DNA of 63,661 nucleotides, the filler included, from Kipferlia bialata (lineage: Eukaryota): NCBI GenBank assembly GCA_003568945.1. It is 3 parts of 3 records of this genome, joined end to end, with 100 filler letters (N's around TTAATTAATTAA, not from the genome) between each part and the next. Parts side by side here need not be neighbours in the genome. Positions count along the whole stretch, not along the records: positions 25,033 to 49,790 come from BDIP01000219.1; 2 more parts are not named here. One strand, 5' to 3'. Below are positions 2,371-53,056 of the stretch, piece after piece. The notes under the pieces are model-generated. The model had not been told where the DNA came from. It saw only the letters and a list, made by a program, of their open reading frames with translations, and searched no databases. Within the stretch, counting starts at the first letter, position 1. Each line of letters opens with the position of its first letter. Position numbers and translations under genes: made by a program.

Positions 2371-2410
<40 letters not shown>

Positions 2411-5498: not shown

Positions 5499-5543
<45 letters not shown>

Positions 5544-6176: not shown

Positions 6177-6225
<49 letters not shown>

Positions 6226-6288
6226 CTAACACTAGGCTCCAATGTCTTCTATGCCCCTGTGGAGCACCCTGAGACACCTTTCTCTCTT

Positions 6289-6319
<31 letters not shown>

Positions 6320-7072: not shown

Positions 7073-7110
<38 letters not shown>

Positions 7111-7559
7111 ACTCATACTAGGACTGGACCTGTGTGTGGTCCACCCCCGATGTGAATGTATATACTCCCATATTATGCATAGTTATGCATAGTACATAAT
7201 AATATATATTTATCTCATTCTAGGACTGGACCTGTGTGTGGTCTGTCCCCGAGGACACCACTGGGGTACAGGTGCCACCTGGGGTGACAGGTACATATAT
7301 ATACAGTAGTATATATGTATGTATATCTATTTATATAGTGTTTACATGTATATATTTATGTATATCTATTTATATAGTGTTTACATGTATGGGTATATAG
7401 TTCACTGTGGTGCAGGTGCCACCTGGGTTTACAGGTGTGTATACATGAGAGTATACCATATATATCATTCTTAAGGATAGACCTTCTATCATTGTGTATC
7501 CTATCAATACATATTGACTCCAGACAAGTGCTGCTACCTGGACGTGACAATGTGTACAC

Positions 7560-7596
<37 letters not shown>

Positions 7597-9422: not shown

Positions 9423-9463
<41 letters not shown>

Positions 9464-15400: not shown

Positions 15401-16912
15401 AAGTATATACCCTCTGACTCTGACACGGATACAGTGGTGTCAGTCACACCAGAGCCACTAGAGATACAAATGTACAGTATACATATACCAGTATGAGTGT
15501 ATTCTTGTATTCTTGTATTCTCGTTGCAGTATCATGACTCTGTTTGACCTGTGACATATATTGACTTCTATTGACTTCTAGGTTGACCAGGACAAGGTTG
15601 ACCGGTACCTTAAGCTCCTGTACATCATTCTGGGGGGCATCTGTGCCTCTGGACTTCTAGGTACTACTCTTTCTCTCTCTCTGTTTCTATCCCTTTCTCT
15701 GTTTCGTTCTCACTACATTACTGATCTGTGGCAACAAGGCCCACTCTCTCTCTCTCTCTCTCTCCCTCTCTCTCTTTCTCTATACATCCTTATATTTACA
15801 TATATGTATATTATTACATGTATGTGTGTGTTTGTACGTATTCGTTAACATGCGTACTATCTTTAACTTACACTTATTCTTTACATATTTAGTCTCTGAC
15901 CCCAGTCTCTCTCTCTCCCTCTTTAGGTCATTCTCTCTCTCTCTCTTCTGACCCCAGTTCTTATCTGTGGCAAGACCCACCTGATCAAGAAGATTGATCT
16001 CTTTGCTTTGAACTATGTCTTCACCGTACCAGCAACACTGGGGTGAGTACTCTCAGTGTATACAGTGTATATATATATTGGACTATATATATGTATATAT
16101 TGGTATAGTATATATAGATATATTGGAAATACTCCATTCGCCACGCCAATAGTCATTATATATATACATATATATATATATGTGTGTGTGTGTGCGTTCA
16201 TTCATATGGAAGTGTGAAGAAGAGTAGTATTGATTAATAATACCAGGAGTATGACGACCTGGATCGGCGGCTTCATCTGTTACTCTATAAATACAGAGTA
16301 CATGTATTCAATGTGTTTTACTATCCCTAACCATCAGCTCTAAGACCACCTGGATAGGAGGCTTCTTCTCAGCTGTCTTCATCTGTTCCTTTGTTGTCAT
16401 GGGCTCTGGTCTGGTCATACCCTACCTCTACACAAACATATCAGAGGATAGGGGTCTGGTGCCTCTGTGTCTGGCCTCTACAGTGCTAACTGGCAATATG
16501 ACAGGTACTATACAAATAGTGTATAGTATATGAATATATCGGAGGACAGGTGACTAGTATCCCTTCGATTAGCATCGACGAGCTAGTATGGTGATACCAC
16601 CTCGCTTTCCCTGCATCTCTCTCACTCCCTTATCATACTTGACATGTCCTTCACTGGTCTCTATCTGCATCTCTCCCCATATATATAAGGATATATGTAT
16701 ATATATATATGTATATATTAATAACCCCTTAGTTGACATGGCCTTCACTGGTCAGTTCGATGACTATTCTCTCTCTTCCTCTCTCTCTCTCCCTCTCTCT
16801 CTCTCTCTCTCCCTTTCCATCTATATATACATGTTTGTATCTAACCCCTTAGTTGACATGGCCTTCACTAGTCAATTTGATGACTGTTCTATAAATCTCT
16901 CATCCATATATA

Positions 16913-16946
<34 letters not shown>

Positions 16947-18667
16947 ACCCTCCAGTTGACATGGCCTTCACTGGTCAGTTTGATGACTGTGCCCTGATAG
17001 CCGATGGGGAGTATGGCACATGCTCATCAGATGTGACAGGTACAGGATTGTTATGTTTGAGTATAGCATGAATAATAATATGTGTAGTTGGTATCTCAAG
17101 TAGATGCGTATTTGTATGTCTCACCGTCAGTGACTGCCCCACCTTGACATCCACAATGTATAAGTAGTTATGTATGGATATCGATATTAGTAATGTGTAT
17201 CCTGATGTAGAATACTAGTCTCCTGTCTCACCCTCAGTGACTGTCCCCAGTGACATCAACACTGGGGGTGTGTACACACAGACATGCATGCAGGTGAGTA
17301 GATGATAGGCATATATATAATAGTATTATATACAATATTGTAGACGCATATATTGTAACACACAGACATGCATGCAGGTCAGTTCAAGGAACCCTAAGTT
17401 ATAGTATATGAATATGTATACTGGTGAGGCTTGTATGTGTCTCACTGAGCAACAAACACGAGGCTCTTTCTCTTCCTCTCTTACCCTCAGTCCTCCCTTG
17501 CCTCTGGGACAGCTGACACTACGGCATGTGCAGTCAGAGGTATGGTATCGTATCTATTTTGTTGCCATTATCCACGTCCTCTAATCCCATTGGTGAGTGT
17601 ACTTCTATATTTCGTGTTTATAAGAGAATACTGTGTATTTCGTGTCCACTCATCCTCAGTCGAGATCCAGGACGCCTTGTTGTCCAGCAGAGATTGTATT
17701 ATATTTATATGTCTATATACAGTATATATAAATATGAATAGTGTATCTAATCCTCAGTCGAGATCCAGGATGCCCTGTTGTCCAGCAGAGAGTCCGAGTT
17801 CAGTCTGCAGATTCTGGGGTCGGGGGAGTACTTCGCTTCAGCTATAGGTACGGAAAAGTGTTTGTATGGTGTTGTAAGAATATAGTAGCTATATGTATAC
17901 AGATTATTATTATTTTATTTGTTATTCACTGTAGAGTAACCCCACATGTGTTCTAATATACTCTGTTATATAAATATTTGTTATATAGTACTTCTTACCT
18001 TCAGACTGGGAGGTATCCTCCAATGCATCCAACCCTGGCCAGATATCGAGGTATGTGTATATATATATGTATTGTATTATACTTATATATATATATGCAA
18101 CATTACTATCCTTGCCCCATCTCTAGGTATAGTTACGCGATTCAGTGTCCGGCGGCGGATATGTACGTATATTTACGAAGGTAATTGTACCCCTCCCACA
18201 CCAGCATTGGTGGCACCCTCCTGCCCTACACCGGCATGACATTCAGAGGCACAACGACACCGACAGAGGTACATATAGGAGACGATATATATGTATTCAT
18301 ATGAGAGTACATTGATACTATTCTTAGGTAATCTTTATCCAATCCTCTTTGACCCCCAAGGTATGTAACTTCCTCTCCACCGAATCCTTGTATGACACAG
18401 CAGTACTTGTATATATGTTCAACAGAATTACTAGTGTCCAAAATCTAGATTGGCCTCTTCTCCACCGAGTCCATGTATGACATAGTAACACTGTATCATT
18501 CACACTAAGCTGCTTATATTCTTGTGTAACTCTTCAATAGTCCAGAATATGTCCCCTTACCCATTAGATTGGCCTGTTCTCCACCGAGTCCATGTATGAC
18601 ATTGAGTATGAGGACGAGGGGGAGGACAACCCAAGCACGGGAAGGATCTTTGAGGTATATATATAAG

Positions 18668-18704
<37 letters not shown>

Positions 18705-20319
18705 TGTACTTGATATTCGAGGTATGGACCCTCTGACTCTCTCTCTCTTTTGCTTTCTCTATGTCTTTTCATTTCATCAGTCCATCGAGAATTCGTTGTG
18801 TTTCATTGTATATATATATATGTTTCTTTGTGTGGGTGGTATGGTGTGTGAATGTGGATGTCTCTATGTATACAACAGTATTGTGTTAACCTCTCACCAT
18901 CCAGTTCATTGGCTATGAGAGGGGTACCATGGTTAGCAACGTGGACTTCCACGACGAGAACGGAGTCAGGTAGAGTATGGTTGTATATGTGTACATTAGG
19001 GATTTGAGCTATCTTTGTAATATCGTTACATATGGATAGGTCCAACAAGAGGTGGTTATGCGGTGGTATATATGTTATGCTCTTACCCCCAGTGTCACCT
19101 TCATCCTGGAGAGGAGTGGGGGTTTCCATCTTAGCAGTAACACATATACATGTATTCACTGAATACATATATAGTGTCTGCACTCTCTCTTTTTACTCTT
19201 ACATCAGCGTCACCTTCATCCTGGAGAGGAGTGGGAGTATCCCTTTAAGGAGTAGCGCTTATATATCATAGTTATCATATACTCTCTGTATGAACTGTGT
19301 TACTCTTACCCCAGCGTCACTTTCATCCTGGAGAGGAGTGAGAACGTCCTGTCCTGGAGCAGAAGCATCGTACGTATCATGTCCTGCTCTCTCTCTCTCT
19401 CTCTATATATATACTTATATATATTACTCTCCCTGTATGTTCATATGGTTTATATATCTCACCTCTAGGTCCAAAACCCAGCCGCCTTCGCAGCTGCAAT
19501 CCTTGGTTCATACACTGGTCTCCAGGGTGAGTGGATATATATCATATATTTACCTATATTACATTGGTCTCCAGGGTGAGAGTATATATAGCTACACCCA
19601 AGTACGTATGTGCTCCAGTACAATGTAATTGTAGTCTATCTAGGCTCACCCCCAGGGTCTGGTATTCATGTATTGTGTATCAATATGTAAATGAAAGAAT
19701 ATGCAACAATACGTTATGATACTCACCCCCAGGCATGTTTGGGTCTGGTGTTGGGTATGTCCGCACTGTGTGGGGCTGGGCCAAGGGCAGGTATGTATGT
19801 ATATGTACTATTAGGATTAATACATTCAAGTCGTAATTATCATGAACCTCTCTCACCCCCAGGTGGGGCAAGGAGAAGCTCCAGAAGAAGCTGGCCAGAG
19901 TGCACACCAAGAGCAGCAGAGAGCAGGTACCACTTCTATGGATATCCTTATATCTCTACCCATTCATCAACATACTATGTATTGTATTAATACTATCATT
20001 GTATATGTGTTAACACACCAAGAGCAGCAGAGGCGAGCAGGTGCGTAAGCATGATACCTCCATATATATCTTCAATCGAACTATTCTCCATTCATTAGTA
20101 TATACATACGCATATATAATAGTGTATTTTTGTGTATATATACATTGAGAGCAGCAGAGGCGAGCAGGTGCGCATATGCACACATCCTATCTCCATATCC
20201 CATTCATTCAGATATTGATACATCCTTCCCACGTACGTGATCTATTAGCTCATCCTCAGGTCCCAGCTGGGCCGGGTTACATCAACCCACTGGGAGTAGT
20301 CCCCACTGCAACCGTGTAG
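3267..20319 (+). CDS. Large secreted/membrane protein: signal peptide, many Kelch repeats, Cys-rich ephrin-receptor/GCC2-GCC3-like repeats, then several TM segments
   Basis: Signal peptide MRTLAPLGPLALVLVAICVLAVLLPAVDA. Kelch exons include RLIVFGGTDTINFYSDLWFFDIPTQIW, LLMFGGMVGD, VYMHGGYGG, LVLFGGQD and LFLHGGLT. Cys-rich exons include CEACAAGSYAAQ, CTACPMGFYNP, CFACPSGTYNDEIGQAECKTCWDGYTCP. TM exons are LLYIILGGICASGLL, WIGGFFSAVFICSFVVMGSGLVIPYL and AAFAAAILGSYTGLQGMFG. The last exon is VPAGPGYINPLGVVPTATV*. Not every internal junction was verified. Confidence 0.8.
8017..8610 (+). repeat. Six tandem acceptor/exon-start copies (ACTCTGCCCCTGCCTCTGTGGT..GGACCAAGCAGGA) in a Kelch-gene intron
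   Basis: Copies near 8023, 8165, 8277, 8384 and 8482; the real exon starts near 8568 (DSNPSSVVWTKQDADLDNEDSDDV). Confidence 0.88.
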
Positions 20320-20647: not shown

Positions 20648-22594
20648 TTACTCCTTCTTCTCCTCCTCCTTCTTCTCGTCCTTCGTCATGGAGTCAAGGA
20701 TGGTCTGAATATAAGGGTGTAGAGGGGGAGAGAGAGAGAGAGAGAGGAGACCGCTGTGATACCTGGAGGGCAGTCTTGACGTTGCCAGTGGCGGGTCCCT
20801 TGGGGAACCTGTGGGGTAAGCGAGGACATAAAGAGAGACAGGGGAATACTTCTGGATACCACACAATATACATGATATATACACACCTGAGGAGGTATGA
20901 CTTTGGCAGGTTGTCCTTCTTCTTGTCGGCCTCCTTCTCTCCCTCCTCCTTCTTCTCCTCCTTCTTGTCGTCATCACCTGGGGTGAGGTTGGTGTATATA
21001 ACACATGCACTGTCGAATACAGTACATAAGAATATATATATATTTGTATATATACACAGTACCTGGCATGGGGACTGCTGCTGCATAGTTGACCAGGGCC
21101 AGCTGCACAAAGTTACCCTCCCTGTCGCCTAGAGTGAGAAGAGAAGCATGTCAAAAGAGACTGGGATATGTAAGATATCCGTATAGAGAAGATATCATTG
21201 CATATATCTTGAGAGAGAGAGATAGAGCCATGTACCTAGGGACAGGGATGCTGTGATGGGAGCATTGAGGACAAGCACACCGGTCCTCTCACGCCTGGGG
21301 TGAGAAGGGGAGAGAATTTACACAAATGGGTTGCAGCACTTAACAATCAGAGACAAACGAAAGAATTCTTAGGATCACCATCCTTTAACGCAAGAGCGCA
21401 AATATATACAAGAATAATATTATGTACTAATATGTATACACTCAACCATACCTGAACACCAGTCTGCCACCCTCGCCCTCCTCGGCCTTGTTGACCTGGG
21501 GGTCAGGGGGAGATGGTATAAATGATAACATNNNNNNNNNNNNNNNNNNNNNNNNNNNNNNNNNNNNNNNNNNNNNNNNNNNNNNNNNNNNNNNNNNNNN
21601 NNNNNTATGTAAGTAAAGAGAGTCCTCCTCGGCCTTGTTGACCTGGGGGTCAGGGGGAGAGAAGATCTATATATTCAATGCATATAAATAATATACACAA
21701 TAAGTATAACACACCTTGAGGGTACCGGTTCCCAGCTCCACCCACTGGCCTGACTCCCCAATGGCATAGCACTTGGCACGCTCGGAGGCCATGGCCTTCT
21801 CTCCCTCCTGGGGGTTGGACGTACGGTGGAGGGAGGGTCATATATATAGTAAAGTATAATAGAAATAGCAGATATTTATGAAGTATATCAGCATACCTCG
21901 CCAGTGGCCACTACCACAATGGCACATAATACACACACACACACATATATATATACATATATACATACACACCTCTCCTGTGGCCACTGCCACGATGGGT
22001 GCCTTGGCCTTGGGCTTCTCGGGCGAGGCAGGCTTCTGGAGGTGAGGGGTGACATATACAATACACATATATATGAACCTATCATTCTGCTTCCACACAC
22101 TTCAACCATATCCTGCTCGTTCTCTCATGTATTCATATCTTATATATACCTCCTCCTCCTTGGTCTCCTCCTTCTCAGTGTTCTATATATACATTTATAC
22201 ATATATATATATATGTGTGTGAGTGTATAATCTACCTATCCACATATATATCTATCCATATATGGTATATACCTCCTCCTCCTTGGCCTCCTCCTTCTTC
22301 TCAGTGTTCCATGCGGCAGGGGGCTTGAACTTGAAGTCACCTGGGGTTATACAACATATCATACCATATCTACTACTACATATTATATATACAAGTGGGA
22401 ATATATATGTATTATTAATTATACCTGTGCCGAATGCAAAGGAGTAGTCTGGCTTAGACATCTACTAATACAGAGTATATATAGAGTAAATGCAGTGTAC
22501 ATATATATATATATCCTAACCTGTGCCGAATGCAAAGGAGTAGTCTGGCTTAGACATCTACTAATACACAGTACATATAGAGTAAATGCAGCGC

Positions 22595-22632
<38 letters not shown>

Positions 22633-23291
22633 CCTAACCTGTGCCGAATGCAAATGAGTAGTCTGGCTTCTTGTCGGTGGGCTGGTTCTGGCCAAAGTGG
22701 AACCCAGAGATCACGGGCTTCTAGAGATTAGATAGAGAGAAAGGGAGAACCATAGTATATGGGAGAGAGCGAAAGGGAGGGAGAGAGTGCAACCCAGATA
22801 TCACAGGCTTCCATAGATTAGAGAAAGAAGGGGGAGAGAGAGAGAGAGAGAGGTATTGCAGGGGAGACAGACCCTTACCTCAACTAGCTTCTCCTCCTCC
22901 CTCACCCCCCTCCCTCTCTCTATATAAATATACATATGTATATATACTTGTATCAATATATCTTTACCTCAACTGGCTTCGCCTCCTCCTCCTCCTCCTC
23001 AACGGGCTTCTCCTCCTGGGGGTTAGAACAAGGGTGTTAGAAGCAGAGAGAGAGGGAGAGAAAAAGAGAGGGAGACAGAGAGACAGAGAGACAGAGAGGA
23101 AGAGAGAGATGTAGTGGGGATGTATATACCTCCTTGGGCTCCTCCTTCTGCTTGACCACGTCATGTATATATATACACATATATATATTAATGTATACAT
23201 ATATATGCATACCTCCTTGGACTCCTCCTTCTGCTTGAACAGGTCAACCTGGGGCATGGGGGCAGCGGCCTGGAAGGTAAGGGTGTGTATA

Positions 23292-23329
<38 letters not shown>

Positions 23330-24049
23330 TAGCAGCCTGGTACACTAGTATGTATGGAGATAGATAGCTAGAAAGATTCATGGTACGCCTGGCTGTAAGG
23401 ATGCTGAAAGTGTAGAGAACGAGTGGGAGTGAATGGGTATCTAGTGATATGGTGAATCCATAGAAGAGATACAGTATCAACTGTGTTCAATGACGCTACA
23501 CAAATAACACGTTAAGCGTATAAGAAGTCAGACTGTATATAATCCGACCCGTGTCTCAGCGTAAACGATACGAGTACCGGGGGATGCACACAGTCCAGCC
23601 ACATCAAGATACGATGGATTGATTACAAGTGGTACTGGTATGTACCACCTACTCCCTCTACACCCAAATGTATACACTATAATGCACACAAATCCTCCCT
23701 ACCTTTACTGGCTTGGCGAAGTTGAATGCGAAGGGGGCACCGGCGTTGAATGCAAAGGTGTTGGCGGGGGTGGCCTCTGGGGCCTTGGCATCGAAGGAGA
23801 TGGCCGTCTTCTTCACCTTGGGCTGGCCGTCCTTGTTCAGACGACGCCTGGCCTTCAGAATCACACGCTCCTTCAGCACCTCGGGGGCGGCAGTGCCCTC
23901 CTCAGCGTCGCCAAGGGAGTTGGCATCCTTATCCACAGGCTGCTTCTCAAAGGAATCCCTAGGGTCAATGGCGGTGTAAAGAGTGCACTGCAGCGGCCCA
24001 CACTGCTCTGGCCTTACCTATCAATGGGGTCTGCCCTACGCTTTCCCAT
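20648..24049 (-). CDS. NUP50: Nup50/Nup2-like nucleoporin (importin-alpha-binding N-terminus, FG-like repeats, C-terminal RanBD)
   Basis: Spliced N-terminus MGKRRADPIDR|DSFEKQPVDKDANSLGDAEEGTAAPEVLKERVILKARRR matches the Nup50 pattern (KR...A.EVLKxRxIxKAxRR). FAFN/FAFG/FKFK motifs follow. C-terminal RanBD-like exons: VATGE|EGEKAMASERAKCYAIGESGQWVELGTGTLK|VNKAEEGEGGRLVFR|RERTGVLVLNAPI. Confidence 0.8.
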
Positions 24050-24358
24050 CTCTCTGGCGAAGAAGGCAAACACAGATGTTGCTCTGGACCCTTTGGCTAT
24101 GGTATGAAAAACACTAGACCCTTTTCTCGTATGGTTCTGATTTACGGGAGACATGATATACACGATATATTAGCACTCCCTTCACTCTACATAGAGCATC
24201 TATCTCACAGTGAGACCGCCTGCCTTACTAGTCCATCCATTGAGCATAAGTGTAGACAGAGACCCTTACTCTATTCTTTCTCTCTCAGGGAAATCTTTGG
24301 TTTGGTATCCATACCAGCCTATTTCTCTCTCTCTGACAGAGAGTCTCTGTCTCCCTAT

Positions 24359-25145: not shown

Positions 25146-27192
25146 CTTGTACATTCTGCCGTATAGGCCGTAGTTGGGTGTGGAGGAGTGAGTGATGATC
25201 AAGGAGTTGGACAGGGACTGCACACAGTAGCACTGCTCCACAGGGTGGTTGACGATGCTGACATTAAGGGTGTAGAGAAGGAGAGAGAGAGAGAGAGTAA
25301 TACCACGGGGTGATTGACGACATGATAAAAAGATTTTCAAGGTGTAGAGAGAGAGAGAGAGAGAGAGTACCTCGTGATGACGTCCTGGTTGGGGTCTGAC
25401 ACCTCGCTGATGGGGGAGGGGACATTGACCTAAGGGTGAGTATATATATGTGTATATGTATATATATATATATATATACATATTAGTATTGTAATAAGAG
25501 TATCTCTCTATACATCTGACACCTCGCTGATGGGGGAGGGGACATTGACCTATTGTTAGCATTATTCTATATACTGTATTTGTATATATGACATATATAG
25601 TAGTAGTATATATATATATCTGACACCTCACTGATGGGGGAGGGGACATTGACCTAGGGGTAAGGTATATATGCTACATACCTATCCATTGCATACACAT
25701 GTTATCCGTATACACATACATATATACAGTATATCACTATGCCCATACCTCCCACATGACCAGCTGCTTGTCCTCATACACATGTATGTATAAACTATAT
25801 ATTCATCCAATACTAATATACTACTACTCTCTATATATACAAATATAGTATATTTCATATACCGATCTATATTCATGTAGATATACATATTATTAAAAAA
25901 ATACCTCCCACATGACCAGCTGCTTGTCCTCAGCGGAGGTGACAAAGTGCCTGGGGTAAGATGTATATATACATACAATTAATATACATTATATCAGTAG
26001 ATATTCAGGGAGAGAGGTGAAAAAGTGCCTGGAGGGGAAGATGTATTCTATAGAGAGATAATACACATCAGTACAACAAATAGAGCTTTCAATAGTATCA
26101 CACTAATATATATACACACACATACACAGTGTATATATTATACACATACCTTCTGTCCTGGAGCCATGAGATGGCCACCACTGCGGCATCATGGGACTGG
26201 TATTAGGGGTGTAGGGAGAGAGAGAGGGAGAGAGAGAGAGAGAGAGAAAGAGATTGCCTGGCATCATGGGACTGATGATTAGGGGTATAAGAGGGATATA
26301 CACATTGACACACACACACACAAACCAATACAATACACTCACCCTGTACTGCAGGTATGCCTCCTCGCTGATCTCCAGGGCACCCTCACCGGCAAGGGTG
26401 CGCTGCTGGGGGTCAGTATATATACAATATAATATAGTATATATACAATATAGTATATACTAGAGAAAGAGAGAGAGAGCGAAGGCACCGCCTAGAGTGC
26501 GCTGCTGGGGGTCAGACACATACTATTACACTATATATGTATATGTGTATGTATATACTTGAGCAGAAGGATGGGAGTACTTGGTGCGCTGCTGGGGGTC
26601 AGTACCATTGTAGTACTATATTGTATTACTCTAGAGTAACCCTACCAATATCCATAAAGAGAGAGAGAGAGAGAGAGTACCTTCTCCTCCTCGTGCGAGG
26701 GTATCTTCCAGCACCCAACCATCCTGTTCTGACCACCAACCATGATGATGCTGTCATCGTCTGACAATAAGGGTGTAGAGGGAGAGAGAAAGGGTNNNNN
26801 NNNNNNNNNNNNNNNNNNNNNNNNNNNNNNNNNNNNNNNNNNNNNNNNNNNNNNNNNNNNNNNNNGAAGTAATCATGATGATGCTGTCATCGTCTGACAA
26901 TAAGGGTGTAGAGGGAGAGAATTAAGGGTGTAGAGGGAGAGAATAGAATAATGAGTTTAGTGTGTGAGAAAATATGGGTGAAGAGGGAGAGAAGGGTGTA
27001 GGGGAGAGAGTACACACCTGGTACAAACGACAGACACTGGGGCTTGATGTTGATGCAGCTCTCTCTCTCTATATATATATATACTCTATGTGTTTATATG
27101 TATGTACATTACACTACATATATATACATTGTGTATATACACACCTGGCACAAATGACAGGCACTGGGGCTTTGTGCTGAGGCTGAGGGCAG

Positions 27193-27236
<44 letters not shown>

Positions 27237-27685
27237 GTGTACATCTGGTACAATAAGGGTGTAGAGGGAGAGAGAGAGAGAGTATATACCTGGCACAAAT
27301 GACAGACACTGGGGCTTGGTGTTGAGGCTGAGGGCAGCTATGCATGTGCCCTGGGCCACGTTCCAGATACGCACACGCCTGGTATTAAGGGTGTAGAGGG
27401 TAAAGAGGGTGTAGAGAGTATTAAGGGTGTAGAGGGTATCAACGGTGTAGAGGGTATTAAGGGTGTAGAGGGTATTAAGGGTGTAGAGGGTATCAAGGGT
27501 GTAGAGGGTATTAACAAGAGTGCACATAAGTGTGCTGTGTAGAGAGATACTGGGAGCATATATGCAGTGAAATACCTGTCGAATCCAGCTGTGGCCAGTC
27601 TGGTGCCACCTCTCTCTCTCTCTCTCTCTCTGTATATATATATATATAAATATACCTGTCGAATCCAGCTGTGGCCAGTCTGGTA

Positions 27686-27727
<42 letters not shown>

Positions 27728-27879
27728 ATATATATATACACAGCACACTGTATAGAATATACATAGGAATACCTGTCGAATCCGGCTGTGGCCAGTCTGG
27801 TACCGTCCTCGGACCAGATGACACTGGGGGTGGGATACACATAGATAATAGAGAGAGAGAGAGACAGAGAGAGAGAGAG

Positions 27880-27923
<44 letters not shown>

Positions 27924-29190
27924 CTGCCGTCCTCGGATCACATGACACTGATATACTTTACAAAACATAGCAGTAAGAAGAAGGCCGACGAGAGAGAGAG
28001 AGAGAGAATGAGAGAGAGAGATAGAGAATTACGTACGATGTGATGGGGCGTGTGTGGCCGTGGAATGTACGGATACATGGGAACCGGCCAGTAAGGCCCT
28101 TCTGGCTCTGGGGGTCATTATATAGAGGGTTTCATTTGAATAGGTCATTATAATAAGGGAGGGGAGGTCATTAGATTAAGAGAGGTACTCATTATAATAT
28201 GGAGTTATAGTTAGGACGAACTATATTGAAGAATGCAGGCCCTTCTGGCTCTGGGTGTCATTATAATAAGGGGGGAATCATTAGAATAGATAGAGTGGAG
28301 TCTACATATAGTCTACTGAAAAGAATGGGAAGAGTCATCAGAAGAAATATGAAAACAGCTAACACAATATATATATATATACAATATTACACCTTGTTCT
28401 GCATAGTGCCCATGATTCCGTCCTGCACATATAGTAAAAAGTATTTTTATATATATATAATACATATATTGTAGTATATAAACATATATATACCGTGTTC
28501 TGCATAGTGCCCATGATGCCATCCTGCACATAGATTCTAATAATATATACTATTCACACTTCTGATACCTTGTATATATATATATGCATAATACTACTAC
28601 TATTTTTTACTACATTATAATACCTTGTTTTGCATGGTGCCCATGATCCCATCCTGCACGTTGGTACTGGAGGTATCCCAGAGCTTGACCTTGCCATCCA
28701 TGCCACCTGGGTATTAAGGGTGCAGGGGGAGAGAGAAGGGGTGTAGAGGGAGAAAGAAAGGGTGTAGGGGGAGAGAGAAAGGGTGTAGGGGGGAAGAGAG
28801 AGAGAGAGAGAGAGAGAGGTATCCCAGAGCTTGACCTTGCCATCCATGCCACCTGACATTAAGGGTGTAGAGGGGGAGAGAAAGGGTGTAGAGGGAGAGA
28901 GAAGGGGTGTAGGGAGAGAGAGAGAAAGGGTGTAGGGGGAGAGAGAGAAAGGGTGAAGAGAGTCACTATACCTGACACAAACATATATAGTATACATACT
29001 AACCTGATACAAACATGTGACCACTCTAACTCTCTCTCTCTATCAATATATGTGTACATACATGTATATGTATATGTCTCCTTACCTGATACAAACATGT
29101 GGCCACTCTTGGGTGCCCATACCAGGGCACTGACACCCTTGGGGTGGGCATTGACCCAGGTGTGACAGCAGTGCCTGAAATAAGGGTGTA

Positions 29191-29225
<35 letters not shown>

Positions 29226-29437
29226 GAATCGACCCAGGTGAGGCAGCAGTGCCTAGTGTCTAAAGGGTGTAGAGGGAGAGAGAACAATACCTGCTGCACA
29301 CTGACAGGTACCGGTTGTATATATTTATATACATTGGAAATTTGGACAGATAGAGGGGGAGAGAGAGAGAGAGGGGTACCTAGGCACCGTAGCTCTGACT
29401 CTGGTACATATACCATATACTATACTAAATAGTATAT

Positions 29438-29492
<55 letters not shown>

Positions 29493-29501
29493 CATACATA
29501 C

Positions 29502-29532
<31 letters not shown>

Positions 29533-30976
29533 TATAGACATATACCTAGGCACTGTGGCACTGACTCTGGTTGGGAATATATACCATATATATACATATC
29601 AGAGTGAGAGATACACATGGGTACATACATACATACATACATACATACCTATATACATAGTATTATAATATACATTTATACAATATATATACATATATAT
29701 ACCTAGGCACTGTGGCACTGACCCTGGTTGGGTATATACATATAATATACTATATGGTATATGAATACATATATATACATATCAGAGTGAGAGAGATAGA
29801 AATAAGAGTGTAGGAAGAGAGAGAGAGAGAGAGAGAGGTACCTAGGCACTGTGGCACTGACTCTGGTTGGGTCATCTGGCATGACATGCTGCATGGCATC
29901 GGGGACCTTGGTATTAAGGGTGCAGAAGGAGAGAATAAAGGGTGTAGAGGGAGAGAGATGCATGACACGCTGCTGCATCGGGGACCTGTATTAACTTAAT
30001 ACTATTAAGTGTGTAGAGGGAGAGAGTAAAGGGTGTAGAGGGGGAGAGAGAGGCATGACATGCTGCATGGCATCGGGGACCTGCATATTAGGGGTGTAGA
30101 GGGAGAGAATAAAGGGTGTAGAGGAAGAGAGAGAGGCATGACATGCTGCATGGCATCGGGGACCTTGATATTTAGGGTGTAGAGGGGGAGAGATGTGTAG
30201 ATATGTATACACACAGTGTGTATGTCCTTTCCGGTGCCTTGTACTGGGTATATACATATACACACATATACATTAATATATTCATAGAAAAATACAGTAG
30301 CTAACTTCCCTCTCTCTCTATATATATATGTGTATGGGATGGATGTATACACACCTGAGTGTATGTCATCCCCAGTGCCTTGTACTGGGCTGGGTATATA
30401 CATGTACAATGCATATATATTTATATATATATGTATATACATTCGTGTATAATATTGTATCCAATGCATTAATATATATATGTAAATTGTATATATATAT
30501 ACCTGTGTGTATGTCCTTCCGAGTGCCTTGTACTGGGCTGGGTTGTGCCACTCGGAGTAGGGCCTGGAGGGTAAGTACATATATAGAGTATACACTATAT
30601 ATATACATACAAAACATATAATAATAATATATATACGTGTGCTGGGTTGTGCCACTCGGAGTAGGGTCTGGAAGGTAAGAGTGAATGCAGTCATATAAAT
30701 GAATACATACTTGTATACATGCCTTTGTAGGTCTGGAAGGTCAGAGGAAATACAAAAACTATAGGAGACATGTAAAACACACACATATATTCATATCAAT
30801 ACTCTCTCTCAATATATATTCACATTCGCAGAGTTATATGTGTATGAGCTTGTACCTTGCCTCAACCTCCGGGGCACGCCTCTCTCTCTCTCTCTCTCTC
30901 TCTATAAATATAGATAGGTATATAAATAGTTAGGTCTATGTGTATGCCACTGTACCTAGCCTCGACCTCCAGGGCA

Positions 30977-31014
<38 letters not shown>

Positions 31015-31148
31015 GATATTTATATATATATATATATATAGTATTGTATTCATTAGTATACCTAGCCTCGACCTCCAGGGCACGTCTGCGCTCATCGGCC
31101 TCGGCCTGACATAAGGCAAAAACAATAAGGGTCTAGATATATACACAC

Positions 31149-31183
<35 letters not shown>

Positions 31184-31599
31184 AAGAAAGAACACACTGC
31201 GCTCATCGGCCTCGGCCTGGGGGTTAGAGATACCAATAGCACTTAATAATAATAATAATGATAATTAATATCTATATTGTAGCATATACAAATATTGGGA
31301 AGGTATGCGCTCATCGGCCTCGGCCTGGGGGGTTAGATAGACATACACAGATAGTTAGATAGACATATATATAGTTAGATAGACATATATATAGTTAGAT
31401 AGACATATATAAGGTTATATATAGTTAGATGGAGAGAGAGAGAGAGAGAGAGAGAGCTCACCGGCTTCGGCCTGGGGGTTAGAGATATAGGCACCACACA
31501 TACATGGTATATATTGAATATATATACACATATACACTGTATATATACACTGTATATACCCCCATCGTATTTTCATAGTCCTTGGCCTCCTGTTCAACA

Positions 31600-31631
<32 letters not shown>

Positions 31632-31632
31632 A

Positions 31633-31672
<40 letters not shown>

Positions 31673-31735
31673 TATATATACTGTATATACACCTCCATTC
31701 TCTTGTCATAGTCCTTGGCCTCCTGCTCAACAGCA

Positions 31736-31777
<42 letters not shown>

Positions 31778-32196
31778 CTGTATATATACCTCCATTCTCT
31801 TGTCATAGTCCTTGGCCTCCTGTTCAACAGCAGCCAGCTCCTCAGCAGTGGGGTCCTCGGCTCTCCTAGTCATTAGATTAAGGCAAAGTCATTAGATTTA
31901 GAATTATATCATTAGAATAAGAACATAACAGCAGCCAGCTCCTCAGCAGTGGGATCCTCAGCCCGCCTAGTCATTAGATTAAGGCACAATCATAGAGTAA
32001 GACATATGTCAATATGATGTAATGTATCCTTACGAGTCAATATTATAGATTAGTTTTGCTCTATTCACAGGTCAATATAGATTAGTGATGAAGTCATTAT
32101 ATTAGTACCTCTTGGCCTCTCTGGCCATCTCGGCTGTGTCGAATGGGTTGTATCCACCCTTGACACCAGTGTCCTCCTAGTAATGAGTAAAGGGGC

Positions 32197-32242
<46 letters not shown>

Positions 32243-34872
32243 CCTTGACACCAGTGTCCTCCAATTAATGAGAAAAGGGGCTAGAGGGGGAGAGAGAGAA
32301 TGCAAAACACCCATATGCCAATCTCCTTCTCCCTCGCCTTGTCTCTCTCTCTCGAAAACGCCAATTCTCAAATAGATATTTCCATTGCTGTTGATAACGA
32401 TTCAATATATATACATATTTATATATATATACCTTCTCGCCAGTCTCCTTCTCCCTCCGCCTCTTCTTGGCAACCTGACGCCTGGCCTGATTGTGAGATA
32501 TGCACACATCAGATATACATACACATATATACTCACCTGGTTACGCACTCCCTCTGTGAACAGGAACTCTCTCTCTCTCTCTCTCTATCATATAGCATAT
32601 ATATTAATATATATATATATGTATAGTACATACACTATATACTCACCTGATTGCGCACTCCCTCTGTGAACAGCAATACTCTCTCTCTCTCTCTCTCTCC
32701 ATATATATATATATATAATATTAATATATATACAAACATATGTATTTATACCTGGTTGCGCACTCCCTCTGTGAACAGGAACTCTCTCTCTCTCTCCCCC
32801 CCCCCCCTCCCCCCTTCCCTCTCTTTCAATATTCACATATATATAAACAATTGTATATATGTGTATAGTACATATACGAACCTGGTTGCGCACTCCCTCT
32901 GTGAACAGGAACTCTGCCTGTGCGTCCTGAAATAAGGGTGTAGAGAGAGAGAGAGAGACAGACGCACCCATACAACAATACCCATAAATACACACATTAA
33001 TATTCATATTCTCCCATACCTTGACGTGCTTGGCCACCACTGCGTGCTTGGCATGGGTGACAGAGGCAGCATAGCCTGGTATTAAGGGTGTAGAGAGAGA
33101 GAGAGAGAGAGAGTAGGCATGGGTGACAGAGGCAGCATAGCCTGGAAATAAGGGTGTAGAGAGAGAGAGATGGAGAGAGAGTGCACATGGGTGACACAAG
33201 CAGCAACTACACACACACACACACATATATATATCTACAATACTAATTTTACCTGATCAAAGAAGGGATTGAGATATATATACCCTACTTGCCGTCTGCA
33301 TGTTCACAGGGTTGACCTCCTCTATATATATATACAATACTATATAATGTGCATATATAGGTATATAGGTGAATACTATCTCTGACCTGCTGTCTGCATT
33401 TTCAAGGGGTTCACCTCCTCCTGCACCACGGCCAATATACTATCAATATCTATATACTACACTTAACACATACTCGTATTTATATACATATAGTATATAT
33501 CATTTCCCTACCTGCCGTCTGCACATTGAGTGGATTGACCTCCTCCTGCACCACAGCAAGGTGGCATATATATATTATATACTATATACACTATATATAA
33601 TAATACACCATACTCAATACAGCTGATGATAAGGGCCTAGCGAGGGAGAGAGCTATATATTACCTGCCGTCTGCATATTGAGTGGATTGACCTCCTCCTG
33701 CACCACGGCCAGATGGCATATATACTATATACTATTTAATTATTATTTAATTATTATTTAATTTACTATATATACTATATACCTAACACATATATGTATG
33801 TATACATATAGTGTATACATACCTGCTGTCTGCATATTGAGTGGATTGACCTCCTCCTGCACCACAGCCAGATGGCCAACAGGTGCATATATACTATATA
33901 CACTATATATACTACACTATATACATATACACATAGTATCTATATACCTGCTGTCTGCATGTTCAAAGGGTTCACCTCCTCCTGCACCACAGCCAGGTGG
34001 CACAGATACTATATATACTACACTACATACTATATGCATATACAGCTGATGTTAAGGGTCTAGAGAGGGGGAGAGAGAGAATACCTGCTGTCTGCATGTT
34101 CAAGGGGTTCACCTCCTCCTGCACCACAGCCAGGTGGCCAACAGGCACGTTGATGGCGCCACTCGCAATGAGCTTCTCTCTGGTGTTAGAGAGAGAGATA
34201 GAGAGACAGAGAGAGAGAGACAGGTACGTTGATGGCGCCACTCGCAATGAGCTTCTCCCTAGGGTTAGAGGAAGAGAGAGATAGATAGATAGAGAGATAG
34301 AGAGAGAGGCACAGTGATGGCGCCACTCGCAATGAGCTTCTCCCTAGGGTTAGACATATACATACAGGCAAATATATATATAAGGAGAGAGAGAGAGAGA
34401 GAGAATCACAATGAGCTTCTCCCTGTAGTGTTAGAGGAAGAGGCGAGAGAGACTATCTGTTGTATTAGAGAGAACGGAAGCCTATGGGGAAGACCGGGAG
34501 CTTCTCCCCTGTATGAGAGAGACAGGGATAGATTGCGGGAGAAAGAGGAGCATCAATAATAGTTGCGCTTGCAATCAACGGACGGACACAGACGGAGAGA
34601 GAGAGAGAGAGAGAGTACTAGAGGGGGGGGGGGGGGAGGTATATACATTATCTATTCACTACTAGTCTAAGTCAATATGTCAACAGCATACAAATATGTC
34701 ACAACGTGAGATATGACAGAAAACGTCATTGGTGATATGCAGTAGAGACTGCTAGATGCAACAGAGACACCCAACTCACGTACAGGATGCAGTCGAACAC
34801 GGATCTGATGGCTGGATCGTTCCGTCTGATGTTGCCAACCTCCTCGCAGACACGGCATTGGATGCTCCCCAT
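25146..34872 (-). CDS. PRP17: Pre-mRNA-processing factor 17 / CDC40 (WD40 splicing factor), 3'-truncated at the contig end
   Basis: Spliced segments INVPVGHLAVVQEEVNPLNMQTA, AEFLFTEGVRNQ, YSEWHNPAQYKALGRTYTQVP and ATVPRHCCHTWVNAHPKGVSALVWAPKSGHMFVSGGMDGKVKLWD parallel CDC40 (GPENPF; F.FEQQRR; YDYQGRSY; LPKK.IH.W.GHTKGVS). Further WD40 exons: CIRTFHGHTRPITS, WSEDGTRLATAGFDRRVRIWN, HFVTSAEDKQLVMWE. The start codon at 34872 is tentative. Confidence 0.82.
27383..27512 (+). repeat. About 7 copies of an 18-nt minisatellite (TATTAAGGGTGTAGAGGG) in a PRP17 intron
   Basis: Direct repeats visible at 27383-27512; they produce the spurious TLYTLN ORF. Confidence 0.9.
33286..34140 (-). repeat. About 7 tandem copies of an exon 3' end plus donor (EEVNPLNMQTA|GT) in a PRP17 intron
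   Basis: Real donor near 34084; copies end near 33948, 33823, 33664, 33511, 33387 and 33290. Confidence 0.88.
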
Positions 34873-39569: not shown

Positions 39570-39666
39570 CTGTGAGTGATGACAGTGTGTGTTACATAGG
39601 GGGGGGGGGGGGGGGCACCCCCCCCCACCCGCCCCTATGTATATATCTATCTATCTAACCCCCAGG

Positions 39667-41354
39667 TGGCTATGGCTACTCCGTCAATGTGGATGTAGAC
39701 GATGGAGTGGATGACGAGACATACGGCAGGATGTTCAAGCCCATCCTCCAGTCATGCATAGACCACTACAGGTATTATATAGATAGATAGTCTTGCATAC
39801 GTTAATACATGGGTAGTACGTATTTATATATTTGTATATATTTATGTAGAATACATTTGTTGGTATGTTCAAGCCCATCCTCCAGTCATGCATAGACCAC
39901 TACAGGTACGATATATATGGATGTATATATATATATATATATATATAGATGGACAGTCTTCCATCAGTCATGCATAGACCACTACAGGTAAAATATAATA
40001 CAAGTCAATATATACCTCATGCATTTGTGATGCATTTGTGATGCAGCGTAGTGATGTCCTCTCTCTCTCTCTCTCTACACCCTTAATGTGAATCTCACTC
40101 CCAGACCCTCTGCCATTGTGATGCAGTGCGGTGCTGTCGTCTCTCTCTCTCTCTCTCTACACCCTTAGCGTGTATCTCACCCCCAGACCCTCTGCCATTG
40201 TGATGCAGTGTGGTTATGTTCTCTCTCTCTCTCTCTGCTCCCTTTATGAATTCCTCACCCCCAGGCCCTCTGCCATTGTGATGCAGTGTGGTGCTGACTC
40301 TCTCTCTCTCTCTCTCTACACATTTACTATATGTCTCACCCCCAGGCCCTCTGCCATTGTGATGCTGTTCTCTCTCTCTCTCTCTCTCTCTACATATACA
40401 CATTTACTATAGTCTCACCCCCAGACCCTCTGCCATTGTGATGCAGTGTGGTGCTGACTCTCTGGCCAATGACAGGTACGAGGCACTCTCAGATATACTA
40501 TATATATATATGTAAATATATATATATATGCATATATGTGCCGTCAGTGATATACTCCCTGGCCAATGACAGGTACGGGGCATGTTATATCGTAATTCGT
40601 TATTTCAATACTATGTACGTATCATAACGTCACCCGTGATAGTATAATTGCACAGAGATTGAGGTGGAGAATGGTAACTCGATATATTCATACATGTTCT
40701 GTTGTTGTCCTCTTCCATGTTACATATCATTCATATACCTCTATATATACTGATGCCTCTCACCCCAGACTTGGCTCCTTCAACCTGACCCTCAACGGGC
40801 ACGGGGACTGTGTGCAGGTTTGTTACAGATACATCTATTTGTTACTGACATGTATATATGCCAGTGTTCCTCCCCTTTTTCGCCATGTCAGTTTCACCCA
40901 CATACCCCCCCCCCCCTCTCTCTCTCTATGTATATACCTCTCACCCTCTAGACCGTTGCCTCCTATGGCCTCCCCACCCTCTCTCTCCCTCTTTCTCTCT
41001 CTCTATCTGTCTCCCTCTCTCCACCCCCCTCGCCTCTTTTACCCATATAATCACCATACCCTTATCCCGTCTCACCCTCTAGACCGTTGCCTCCTATGGC
41101 CTGCCCACCCTGTTCCTGGGAGGGGGAGGGTACACTCCAAGGTATATATATGTATATACTACCAATAACTAGTGATGACAGTTGTAAATAGCATTGTACT
41201 CACGCCACACTATTGTCATCAGCAAGTCTTTGTCGTGTTACTCTCTCTATATATATCTTTCTCTTTAGATGTATACGTATCTGCACGCATCTTACACCCC
41301 AGGAATGTGTCCAAGTGCTGGACCTACGAGACCGCCCTCCTTGCTGGCACCCAG

Positions 41355-41391
<37 letters not shown>

Positions 41392-42144
41392 GTCGCTCAC
41401 ACCCTCTCCCACAGTTTGACTACTATCTTTGACTACTATATGTTGGTAACGTAATTATATATGTGTATTATCTGTATCGCACTCACTGCCAGCTCTCCGA
41501 GGAGATCCCCTACAATGGGTTCTATGAGTTCTTTGGCCCCGACTACACCCTTTCGGTGCTACCCAGTAACTGCCAGAACATGAACACAGATAGACAGGTA
41601 TATCTATGCTCTCTCTCTCTCTTTCTTTCTCCCCCCTCCCCATCCCCCTTACCCCCCTATTCACCTTCAGATTGAGGACAAGGTCCTTATATATCTCTCT
41701 CTCTCCTTCTGTCTCTCTTCCCCTATACCCCTTTTAACCACCAGATTGAGGACAAGGTCCGTATGGTGACTGAGCGGTTACGCTCTCTGCCCAATGCCCC
41801 AGGTACAGACATCTCTCTCTCTCTCTCTCTCTCTACATATATATATATATATATATCATATTCTTGTGTATAAGAGAATATGATATATATATAGTATAAC
41901 TGTGTCGATTACACTCACTCTTAGGTGTTGCCCATGGCCGTACCAACCTGGACGCTGCCCCCATAGCTGGAAAGGGTGAGTACTCTCTCTCTCTATATAT
42001 ATATAAATGTATGTGAGTACACACACACACTCTCTCTCTCTCTCTCTGTCTCTCTCTGTCTCTCTCTGTCTCACCCTAGACATGTTCTCCGACTCTGCCG
42101 TTGCCGAGAAGAGGGACGAGGAGGCCGATGTTGCTATGGACTAG
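39667..42144 (+). CDS. Class I histone deacetylase (Rpd3/HDAC1-3 family), C-terminal half only
   Basis: GYGYSVNVDVDDGVDDETYGRMFKPIL...HYR|PSAIVMQCGADSLANDR|LGSFNLTLNGHGDCV...LFLGGGGYTPR|NVSKCWTYETA...EEIPYNGFYEFFGPDYTL...NMN...ERLRSLPNAP|GV...DVAMD* contains the diagnostic class I motifs QCGADSL, GGGGYT, CWTYET and FGPDY. Confidence 0.93.
40095..40475 (+). repeat. Five tandem acceptor/exon-start copies (CTCACCCCCAG|ACCCTCTGCCATTGTGATGCAG) in an HDAC intron
   Basis: Copies near 40104, 40186, 40265 and 40346; the real exon starts near 40425. Copies are separated by (CT)n. Confidence 0.9.
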
Positions 42145-42904: not shown

Positions 42905-42944
<40 letters not shown>

Positions 42945-43944: not shown

Positions 43945-43981
<37 letters not shown>

Positions 43982-50077: not shown

Positions 50078-53056
50078 ATGGCAGAGAGGATCAAGGTGGG
50101 GACTGACTCACTTGCCGGTTGACACATTATTGTACTCTTTCCCGCTCTAGTTCCCTCTATGTCTCTTGTTCACAGACTGCCTCAAGAGTGGTGTCCCCTC
50201 TGTATCTCCCTCACTCTTTGTGCATTGGGTGATTTCTTTGGTGGTATTCATAGATATATACTCTAATCCACAGGCTGCCTGGAGAGTGATGCCCCTTGTC
50301 ACCAAGGTCACGTTCTACACGATATGTGCCCTGTGGCTCTTGAGTGTCTTCTTTGACGCCATGATCACTTACGGGTGAGTGTTATATCACATATGGGTGG
50401 GTGTAGCTAGTGGTTACTGTGTATTTGTTGTTTACGTAAGAAGGATAGAGGAAATAGCTTTAATTGATTCCTGTGTCGATATGCTACCTCTCTCTGTATA
50501 TATCCTCACTCCCCTCAGGTGTTCCCAGCCGAGCCTGGTCTTCCTGAGTGGACAGTGTACGTAAGAACTCTCTCTCTCTTCTTCCTTTTCTCTGTTTCTG
50601 TGCATCTCTCTCTCTCTCTCTCTCTGTGTCTCTCTTGTCTCTGTCTCTTCTCCTCTCTCCTCTTGGTTGTCTTCCATAGTGCATTGTACTGCACCCGTTG
50701 TCTTCATATACTTTCAAGGACACTTACTCTACATGTGCATCCCCTCCCCTATATATATACCCCTGTCTATCTCACATCAGTGTGGCGGCTGGTCACCCCC
50801 CCCTTCCTCCACCTCACCATCTGGCACCTACTTTTCAACGCACTCACCCTGCTGTTCACTGGATACAGGTACACATGGACATACATATATTCACTGATGC
50901 ATATCCATCCCACTAGTTGTCACACCTGTGCCTATATTATCCATGTTTGTATCTAGTTGATCTATTTCCTTTCCATGCCTGTTCCCAACAGGGTATTCTC
51001 GGTGCTGTCTATCTCTTCTTCTCCATCCATAATACTCTCTCTCTATCTATATATTATGGATAGCAGCTAATCGTCAGGCTTGAGCGCCGCATTGGCTCTG
51101 CCCGTATGCTGCACATGATGTCCATGACCATCATCCTCATCAGTGTGCTCAATGTAGGGATCTCATTCATCCTGGCATCCAACCCACTCTACTCGGTATG
51201 TAGTTGCATGCGTGTATACATCTATCTTTGTTATGTTGGCAGTGTATATCAGCTTCTATCCTATTATGGATATCACTAGTTCCTCTCATCATCCCTCAGA
51301 GTGTATCCCCCTCCTAACCCAGATCAATACCTTCTTCTACGAGTGTGCCGTTGGGTATTCTGGGGTCCTGTTTGCATTTGTGGTCGTGGACATCAGGTAC
51401 TGTACTGTGGTCATACCCTTTTCTCTCTTCTTTGTTCTGCTATCTATTGTGGTAGCTAATTGGTCACCTCTTCTTCAGCATGTATCTGTGTAGTCATGCC
51501 GATGCTGCCTTCTAGCCATATAGCATGAGGTTGTATATATATTTAGATATATATATGCCGTGCACTCACCCCAGGGACGCTGGGATCCAGACCATCCCCT
51601 TCTGCTTCCTGTTCAACATCCCAGGTCGGTATATGTTATATATATGGATATATACAGTGATATATATATATGTATATCACTGATCATCTACTAGGTAGGT
51701 GTATAGTATACATGATATATAATATATATGTATCACTGCTCAACATCCCAGGTCGGTATATGTTATATTAGTATATAAGATAATCACTGCTCCATCTAGC
51801 AGGTAGTTCCATTATACATATGTATACATATACGTCTGGTCCGAAGTTCCACTATTGAAACATGTTCATTTTGCCAGATCCCAGGAGTAGAGATATTTAC
51901 CCACTATTGTATATTCTCTGAGTACTACAGTGTATGTTCTCAGCTCTCATCCCAGGCTGGCTGTATCCCTTCATCCTGCTACTGTTTGTGCAGCTGATGA
52001 TGATGCAAGTGTCTCTCATCAGTCACTGCCTGGGCATTCTAGTGGGTGAGTGTCCCTATAGCTGTATAGCTGGTTGTTGGGGGAGTGCTATCTTTATAGT
52101 GTAGTGTCATAGACATACGTAAATATACAATGTGCTCCCCCCTCAATGTCACCATCTCTCTGTCTGTCACCTATCTGTCTATCTGTCTATCTGTCTATCC
52201 TTTGTTGACACCCAGGGTATATGTGGAGTTGGTTCCTGAGAGGCATCATGATCGACAAGAAGGCTAAGGTGGGTGCTATGTAGTTTGCATAGTATTATCT
52301 CTATATCTGTGTCTACTGCATCAAAGTGTGTCCCTAGATTTGCTTGGATTTGTCATATCTAATGACTCTCTTGCCTCTACCCTTCAGGCCTATGAGAAGT
52401 TTGTCTTCCCTGACATTGCACTCAAGCACCCTGGGTTTGTGCCACTCTCGGAGGTATGCAGAGTGTGTTGGCAGTTTGAGTAATTACTAGTGTGTCATCT
52501 TCCATTCAAGGGGTTATTGAGTACTTGTACCATTTCTACAGTGTATAATTACTTATTATACATTGATACTACAGTTGTCATTTCTCTTGGGGTGCTCTCT
52601 TGGTCAATCATTGGATATTACTCTATTCCCTCTCTATTTCGCTACCTTCAGGCCATATCCGATGGGTGCAACAAGCCAGACCGGACAATCAAGCCCACAA
52701 ACGTCCAGAACGGAAGGTGTGTTGCTTGATACATTTTCACTGGATGCCCCTCTACTACAGACGCTCTATATGCTCTCAATACTTTTTACCCCCCCCCCTT
52801 CTCACCCCCAGTCTGTCTGCCAGACACAGCAGCGGCATAGACCTCAGGAGGTATGGTAGCATCATATACATTCAATCCTCACTCTGTACACTTAACCAGC
52901 TGTCATGAATGAATATTGATGATCCTCTGTATGCCTCTCATCTCCAGGGGCACCGTCGACCACTCCATCGAGTCGCAGAGGCCTGTGCCCCCTAAGGGAA
53001 AGAAGGACAAGAAGGAGAAGAAGAAGTTCACTGGGAAGGGGAGGACTATGAATTAG
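50078..53056 (+). CDS. Rhomboid intramembrane serine protease (RHBDD1/RHBDL4-like)
   Basis: MAERIK|AAWRVMPLVTK...GQ|LWRLVTPPFLHLTIWHLLFNALTL...LERRIGS...CAVGYSGVLFA...WLYPFILLLFVQLM...SLISHCLGILVGY. It has the WR motif, HxxxxHxxxN, the catalytic GxSG and the TM6 His, and ends KKFTGKGRTMN*. Confidence 0.9.

Follow-up and report, generated by a model that had tools for sequence, protein, structure and literature searches.

Introns of the free-living fornicate Kipferlia bialata hold partial copies of the exons that flank them, and these copies differ from their exons with a marked excess of silent changes. In the window analysed here (the whole 63,661-nucleotide stretch, made up of three K. bialata scaffolds with N-flanked 12-base linkers at 24933-25032 and 49791-49890), 135 half-exon copies occupy 63 of the 107 introns of six genes, and none is a complete exon. 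An initial annotation had described one such array in PRP17, where two synonymous 'dialects' of a single peptide are interleaved. Such arrays are not peculiar to PRP17, and the dialects are an extreme case of a genome trait, not a PRP17 device. The reading that we favour, with a probability of about 0.55, is that junction duplications arising at microsatellites are tolerated by exon-centric splicing and refreshed by recombination from diverged alleles.

Half-exon copies in the introns of six genes

The Kipferlia genome is described as a short-read, 51-Mb, intron-rich assembly that is probably diploid, judging from k-mers (PMC5874029). Six genes were catalogued, three from the annotation and three hand-built as open frames with AG/GT boundaries, and each exon was aligned to its own flanking introns. 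The annotated proteins KIPB_001514, KIPB_001496 and KIPB_001497 were placed letter for letter by spliced alignment, again with AG/GT boundaries, the first 170 coding bases of KIPB_001497 lying outside the range searched. The PRP17 gene model, KIPB_001514 (21 exons, 25146..34872, minus strand, 3' end off the scaffold), carries 48 half-exon copies in 16 of its 20 introns, the kelch-repeat membrane protein gene KIPB_001496 (47 exons, 3267..20316, plus strand) 61 copies in 33 of 46, and the NUP50/RanBP1-domain gene KIPB_001497 (14 mapped exons, 20651..24083, minus strand) eight copies in 6 of 13. The hand-built models, all on the plus strand, are a 9-exon gene at 812..2848 with seven acceptor-side copies, a 9-exon model at 39666..42144 with ten copies and a 13-exon model at 50078..53056 with just one copy in 12 introns; we take these to be lysozyme-like, histone deacetylase-like (HDAC-like) and rhomboid-like, respectively. 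Pfam scans of two short exons gave no match. The identification of KIPB_001514 as PRP17 is sound: its best natural full-length matches are Prp17 chains, over residues 57-466 and 73-464 with E values of 1e-30 to 6e-33, and the match to Prp17/CDC40 covers the N-terminal region and the WD40 propeller.

The copies are arranged with strict polarity. Those of the upstream exon reach its 3' end in 59 of 66 cases and are then followed by GT in 55, and those of the downstream exon reach its 5' start in 63 of 69 and are preceded by AG in 54. Both AG and GT at the exon's own ends are found in none of the 135, and donor copies lie before acceptor copies in 17 of 17 introns. The control, 2850 non-adjacent exon-intron pairs, returned 10 matches. 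This two-sided polarity would be expected if short tandem duplications arose frequently and did no harm only where they crossed a single splice junction.

Introns are longer the more copies they hold (rho 0.80; medians 132 and 299 bases), by about 96 bases per copy, and of the 29203 intron bases in the six gene models, 4329 (about 15%) belong to exon copies. The free ends of donor copies fall at TA or GA tracts in 38 of 66 cases (GA in 17 of 66, against a background of 1.5%) and those of acceptor copies at CT tracts in 29 of 69 (background 8%), and repeats are locally denser where microsatellites are denser (rho 0.75). Indels are present in 10 of the 135 copies. The intron part of the units has an ungapped divergence of 0.46-0.48 against 0.63-0.67 for background, values that are qualitative only, being inflated by microsatellite indels. 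Arrays are patchy along the genome: no local direct repeats occur in the 2.5-kb bins of 35001-37500, 42501-45000 and 52501-60000, which are intron-rich with few microsatellites. The figure of 59% of introns therefore overstates prevalence, since several such bins have no repeats and the genes were partly chosen for visible ones. The nearest approach to whole-exon duplicates is at 4451-4489 and 4566-4603 (plus strand), where copies span 90-93% of a 42-base exon and lack the AG, and at least five acceptor-side copies precede a 51-base exon of the HDAC-like gene (40036-40463, plus strand).

Two versions of PRP17 exon 2

The array first noticed is that of PRP17 exon 2 (95 nt, residues 30-62, 34085..34179, minus strand, as are all its copies), whose exact spliced alignment has AG before and GT after it and whose sequence defines version A. 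A search across the window with its 54-base core, at a cut-off of at least 30 of 54 matches, recovered the exon (34137-34084), together with six copies whose starts lie at 34000, 33875, 33716, 33564, 33439 and 33341; the sole other match was an unrelated GAG-rich exon. These donor-side copies hold the last 33-61 exon bases, and five end in GT in register, the seventh unit having decayed. Copy 2 (33948..34001), the 3' half of the exon plus GT, is version A with one synonymous change. Version B is represented by copy 3 (33823..33883; seven synonymous and no amino-acid changes), copy 4 (33664..33717; nine and none) and copy 5 (33512..33565; eight and one), copy 6 (33387..33434) has a version A core with a GCC codon shared with B and one amino-acid change, and copy 7 (33290..33322) is an A/B mosaic and the most decayed. 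Three or four copies of the 5' part lie upstream, at 34220..34258 (with its AG), 34307..34343 and 34406..34422 (short), with a further remnant from 34508; all begin with G where the exon has A, a silent difference (CTA/CTG across the junction).

The sequence comparison made in the initial annotation is confirmed in its details. Copy 3 differs from the real exon in six codons (seven bases), all synonymous and including TTG to CTC; GTC AAT CCA CTC is common to copies 3, 4 and 5; and GTG AAC CC is found in the exon and in copies 2 and 6. The two versions, 7-9 bases apart and nearly all of these synonymous, are indeed interleaved, the assembled order of exon and copies 2-7 being A, A, B, B, B, A, mosaic; the contig comparison covered 25040-30440, and the copy order at exon 2 rests on the assembly. 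Copies 2 and 7 have CCT, a third state. Taking donor and acceptor sides together, 13 of 17 distinct variants are synonymous, as are all ten of those common to at least two copies, and the four amino-acid changes are each private to one copy. The peptide contains a mini-repeat with 9-base spacing (TGAAC twice in A, TCAAT twice in B), so that the six codon changes are not independent and slippage could have copied some of them. This is moreover the most diverged of 80 catalogued arrays and is therefore a picked extreme.

Recombination among the copies, also claimed at the outset, is supported by eleven pairs of sites that fail the four-gamete test and by the presence of A and B cores on related spacers. 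Spacer 1 (34001..34084, minus strand; acceptor score 12.5 bits) is homologous to spacer 4 (33565-33663), with 67 matches and 17 mismatches in 84 aligned bases (z 7.6), and both contain an acceptor-like CAG; this is the one clearly homologous pair of the 15 in the array. Had copy 4 been neutral since the two spacers split, 4.4 amino-acid-changing differences would be expected, whereas it has nine synonymous and none that alter the peptide (P 0.009). On this sequence evidence, version B must have spent the greater part of its history as coding sequence.

Two haplotypes set in tandem, or switched, during assembly could mimic such a pattern. The genome is a short-read diploid assembly (PMC5874029), the exon with spacer 1 and copy 4 with spacer 4 resemble allelic segments, and the exon 2 array is known from the assembly alone, the contigs having been compared over 25040-30440. 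Nevertheless, no exact repeat in 33250-34560 is longer than 40 bases, all six spacers differ, and a single 705-base DNA contig spans a neighbouring array without a difference, which makes misassembly unlikely. Furthermore, copy 4 lacks the 5' half of the exon, the array on that 705-base contig shows three states at one Gly codon while matching unique exons in depth, and an artefact would have to respect the polarity of all 135 copies. We regard it as highly improbable. Units in the array are spaced 98-159 bases apart, and Tandem Repeats Finder reports it as 2.9 copies at 77%.

An excess of silent differences

The bias towards synonymous change is also seen in the catalogue as a whole. There are 217 distinct variants, 138 of them at third positions and 125 synonymous; neutral decay of the copies predicts 59 synonymous variants, and silent drift of the exon on top of it 89. 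The observed number was never reached by either null in 3000 draws, nor by three context-matched nulls in 2000 draws each. The ratio of zero-fold to four-fold divergence (d0/d4) is 0.18 (bootstrap over 80 arrays 0.11-0.28), or 0.20 without exon 2, and 0.24 when copy is compared with copy. In simulations, all eight single-lineage settings of mutation and conversion gave 0.47-1.05, whereas templates drawn from alleles with 10-30% silent divergence gave 0.10-0.33. Neutral decay and single-lineage conversion are thus ruled out by the nulls and the simulations, and it is likely that most of the divergence between copies arose in coding sequence, because the observed 0.18 lies below the 0.47 or more of single-lineage models. 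Of the original proposal of two long-diverged coding versions, the coding history of B therefore stands, supported by copy 4 and by this ratio. That there are exactly two lineages is not supported, as a two-class and a continuous model of divergence fit equally (AIC 366.6 and 366.9).

Base composition, neighbouring-base context and CpG were each ruled out by tests as the cause of the excess. CpG accounts for 15 of 160 silent differences, and one of 101 zero-fold CpG sites differs. The silent flux is balanced (74 AT-site and 86 GC-site differences), a state that matches coding sequence in equilibrium. The excess is absent in the lysozyme-like gene (0/26 four-fold, 4/127 zero-fold) and in the HDAC-like gene (3/47 and 9/197), both of which are small samples. 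In the lysozyme-like gene, whose product is taken to be secreted, GC3 is 0.91 and seven copies are without four-fold differences, which would be expected if strong codon bias limits allelic variation.

The same figures could arise within a single lineage if copies were time-ordered snapshots of an exon whose silent sites evolve at 4-5 times the rate of identical sequence in the intron, through mutation, repair or a shifting codon preference. Simulation with this factor gives 0.21-0.23, a fit as good as that of alleles, and distal copies are the more diverged, silent divergence by copy rank being 0.15, 0.19 and 0.25. However, we know of no reason for a 4-5-fold gap in rate over 100 bases of identical sequence, the CpG counts offer no explanation, and the interleaving and the four-gamete failures require recombination regardless, all of which renders this account quite unlikely.

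Variants common to copies of PRP17 are biased in the same direction. Fourteen of 43 synonymous variants are shared, compared with none of 21 amino-acid variants (P 0.003); all 21 of the latter are private to one copy, many are radical and one is a stop. The kelch gene shares variants with no silent bias (P 0.79), and zero-fold divergence is 1.5% in the conserved PRP17 against 4.0% in the kelch gene (bootstrap P 0.001). The amino-acid variants show no tendency beyond random towards conservative change (P 0.21), and so the contrast between the two genes may reflect the age of their copies.

Cryptic, or second-order, selection would read these observations differently: if untranslated copies frequently recombined into the working exon, amino-acid changes in them would be purged. 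Zero-fold divergence is low, and lower in the more conserved gene, the cores are mosaic, and no second allele in the strain is required. Against this, the exchange that we estimate from the silent divergence of 0.18 is only about ten times the mutation rate, so that cryptic selection needs a population diversity above that of the allele model, and the private changes in PRP17 include radical ones and a stop. The number of stops across the copies (two, with five expected) is not decisive. We consider this explanation unlikely.

Splicing and the probable silence of the copies

The copies carry splice sites that differ little in strength from the real ones. Decoy donors have a median of 8.8 bits against 9.5 for real donors, and 35 of 59 equal or exceed the real site to which they correspond; among decoy acceptors, whose scores are somewhat lower, 27 of 63 do so. 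In favour of a reading in which alternative or unusual splicing brings the copies into translation, and so under direct selection as protein, stand this strength of the decoy donors and the presence of an acceptor-like site at most 150 bases upstream of 11 of the 59 donor copies. One such arrangement, at 33948-34045 on the minus strand, is a 98-base cryptic exon in which the strong spacer 1 acceptor (12.5 bits) is paired with copy 2's donor (12.4 bits); its acceptor is also kept in spacer 4. It contains stops in the PRP17 frame, and it could be a poison exon in a splicing-factor gene or a decayed relic.

Several observations weigh against translation. Besides these stops, no copy has both splice sites at the exon's own ends, and ten have indels. 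A spliced contig of 1728 nt (25040-30440), from a single sample in a sequencing run that we guess to be RNA and in which minor isoforms would be hidden, joins only the real PRP17 exons 10-21 and includes none of the 19 catalogued copies in the 11 introns. All eight exon pieces listed align at a constant offset of 45 with no other letter, which means that nothing has been inserted across these introns, and the 633 bases that the contig has upstream agree in length with 588 in the model plus 45; this concerns the main isoform, exon 2 being outside the compared range. Direct selection on translated copies is accordingly very hard to credit, and the copies are likely silent and untranslated. Since they are half-exons without acceptors and probably go untranslated, nothing in them is 'preserved' for use. 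A low dN/dS is no proof of translation.

A proposed course of duplication, tolerance and refreshment

The allele-refreshment reading may be set out as a series of steps. Duplicated stretches of about 100-150 bases, with their ends at (TA)n, (GA)n or (CT)n tracts, would copy an exon end together with its splice site, a mechanism suggested by the observed pattern of free ends. The spliceosome would then choose the first donor and the last acceptor, that is, the nearest pair across the exon, as it does at exons 10-21 and presumably at exon 2, and half-copies would be harmless for this reason; whole-exon duplicates are presumably purged. The exon-derived cores are mosaic and far younger than the spacers, which implies repeated exchange. 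In the next step, templates would include the working exons of other alleles, diverged by roughly 0.1-0.3 at silent sites, whether the setting is an outcrossing population or a diploid that is hybrid or long heterozygous; the transfer would take place between homologues, through unequal exchange or conversion. In human minisatellites, repeat units are known to pass from one allele to another. Refreshment from diverged working alleles would explain why copies keep the peptide yet differ at silent sites. Between refreshes private random changes would build up in each copy, as is observed in PRP17.

The diverged allele itself is not seen in the DNA-type contigs over 25040-30440, where seven other letters are listed and none is exonic, exons 10-21 offering about 190 silent sites; the depth of unique pieces there is even, at 385-439 in seven of eight. 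This counts only weakly against it, because contigs drop variants and repeats were skipped, and the strain may be inbred or may have lost heterozygosity in the PRP17 region. Version B might instead come from a PRP17 paralogue or homeologue elsewhere, by ectopic conversion. The genome is diploid by k-mers according to its description (PMC5874029), and a hybrid origin would make every gene two-versioned. Yet a paralogue with the second dialect, for which the initial annotation suggested a search, did not emerge: among seven candidates from the annotated proteins, one protein, in a cluster of one, matches the exon peptide. The silent excess is also found in two unrelated genes, and a homeologue in a hybrid would be indistinct from the allele-refreshment explanation, so that a separate source elsewhere in the genome appears very unlikely.

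If refreshment from alleles is true, silent diversity near 0.1-0.2 and inter-allelic exchange could be read from one assembly. A wider version, possible though on balance doubtful, is that introns throughout the genome archive half-exons, which exchange sequence with working exons often enough, and in a large enough population, for the genetic code to constrain DNA that is not translated; a single haploid assembly would then record the allelic diversity of the species, and the constraint would partly be second-order selection on silent copies.

Relation to known systems

The donor-side layout is already known from single human genes. In F7 intron 7, CBS, LMNB2, PDGF and 6-16, boundary minisatellites have a unit that spans the exon-intron boundary, so that the donor is reiterated in the intron, and for the F7 type only the most upstream donor is described as normally used (PMC1557585). 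Likewise, the first unit of the PRP17 exon 2 array spans the boundary and holds the authentic donor. In the main PRP17 isoform the first donor is used at exons 10-21. The F7 type, however, is confined to few genes, regular units and the donor side, whereas in Kipferlia 63 of the 107 catalogued introns are involved on donor and acceptor sides, with units of half an exon, irregular microsatellite spacers and a silent excess beyond neutral decay. Internal gene duplication, together with intron gain through tandem duplication (Gao and Lynch 2009, as cited in PMC4974935), similarly involves short tandem duplications within genes that include exon and intron sequence. In Kipferlia, by contrast, no new intron or exon is gained and existing introns lengthen.

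The choice of sites fits a rule of proximity that is exon-centric, by which sites nearest across the exon beat sites nearer across the intron, and which is reported alongside intron-centric choice in human short introns (PMC9225289). Kipferlia uses the first donor and last acceptor as this rule would have it, but does so in protist introns mostly of 100-700 bases, unlike human short introns. Natural decoy sites in their thousands, donors as well as acceptors, would put exon definition to the test against intron definition in this fornicate, for which preliminary searches are reported to have given no snRNA candidates (PMC6679479).

Two further comparisons concern the silent state of the copies. 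The silent conversion cassettes of trypanosome VSG, Borrelia vls and Neisseria pilS store amino-acid diversity for surface antigens. Kipferlia copies are likewise silent, partial, beside the working gene and mosaic by recombination, but the variation that they hold is silent and belongs to housekeeping genes, and they seem to be recipients of sequence, not donors. Storage of amino-acid variation as in donor cassettes does not agree with the low d0/d4 or with the fact that the shared PRP17 variants are all synonymous. Tandem and mutually exclusive exon duplicates are whole exons that are spliced in; the Kipferlia copies resemble them in being intragenic with mostly synonymous differences, but are halves that lack one splice site. 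With no whole exon among 135 copies, and no copy in the RNA-type contig (in which minor isoforms are not visible), the copies do not fit this class either. A scan of metagenome contigs with the KIPB_001514 protein gave 26 pattern matches, none confirmed as a relative.

In a literature search conducted mostly at the level of abstracts, with few subscription papers and no supplements, we found no description of such Kipferlia arrays, nor of two-sided arrays with a silent excess in most introns of microsatellite-rich genes. The main text of the genome paper has no occurrence of 'duplicat' (PMC5874029), and half-exon arrays are thus a route of intron growth absent from that text. In practice, half-exon copies can mislead gene prediction and read mapping.

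Other features of the window

The 5' part of the HDAC-like gene is apparently missing upstream of a poly-G run near 39600. A frame of 1184 codons without introns, at 46292-49846 on the plus strand, encodes repeated beta-rich units and runs into the scaffold end, in a genome that is otherwise intron-dense. At 27381-27514, immediately ahead of an acceptor, an 18-base unit with a branch-point-like motif recurs 7.4 times, and the DNA contigs differ there.
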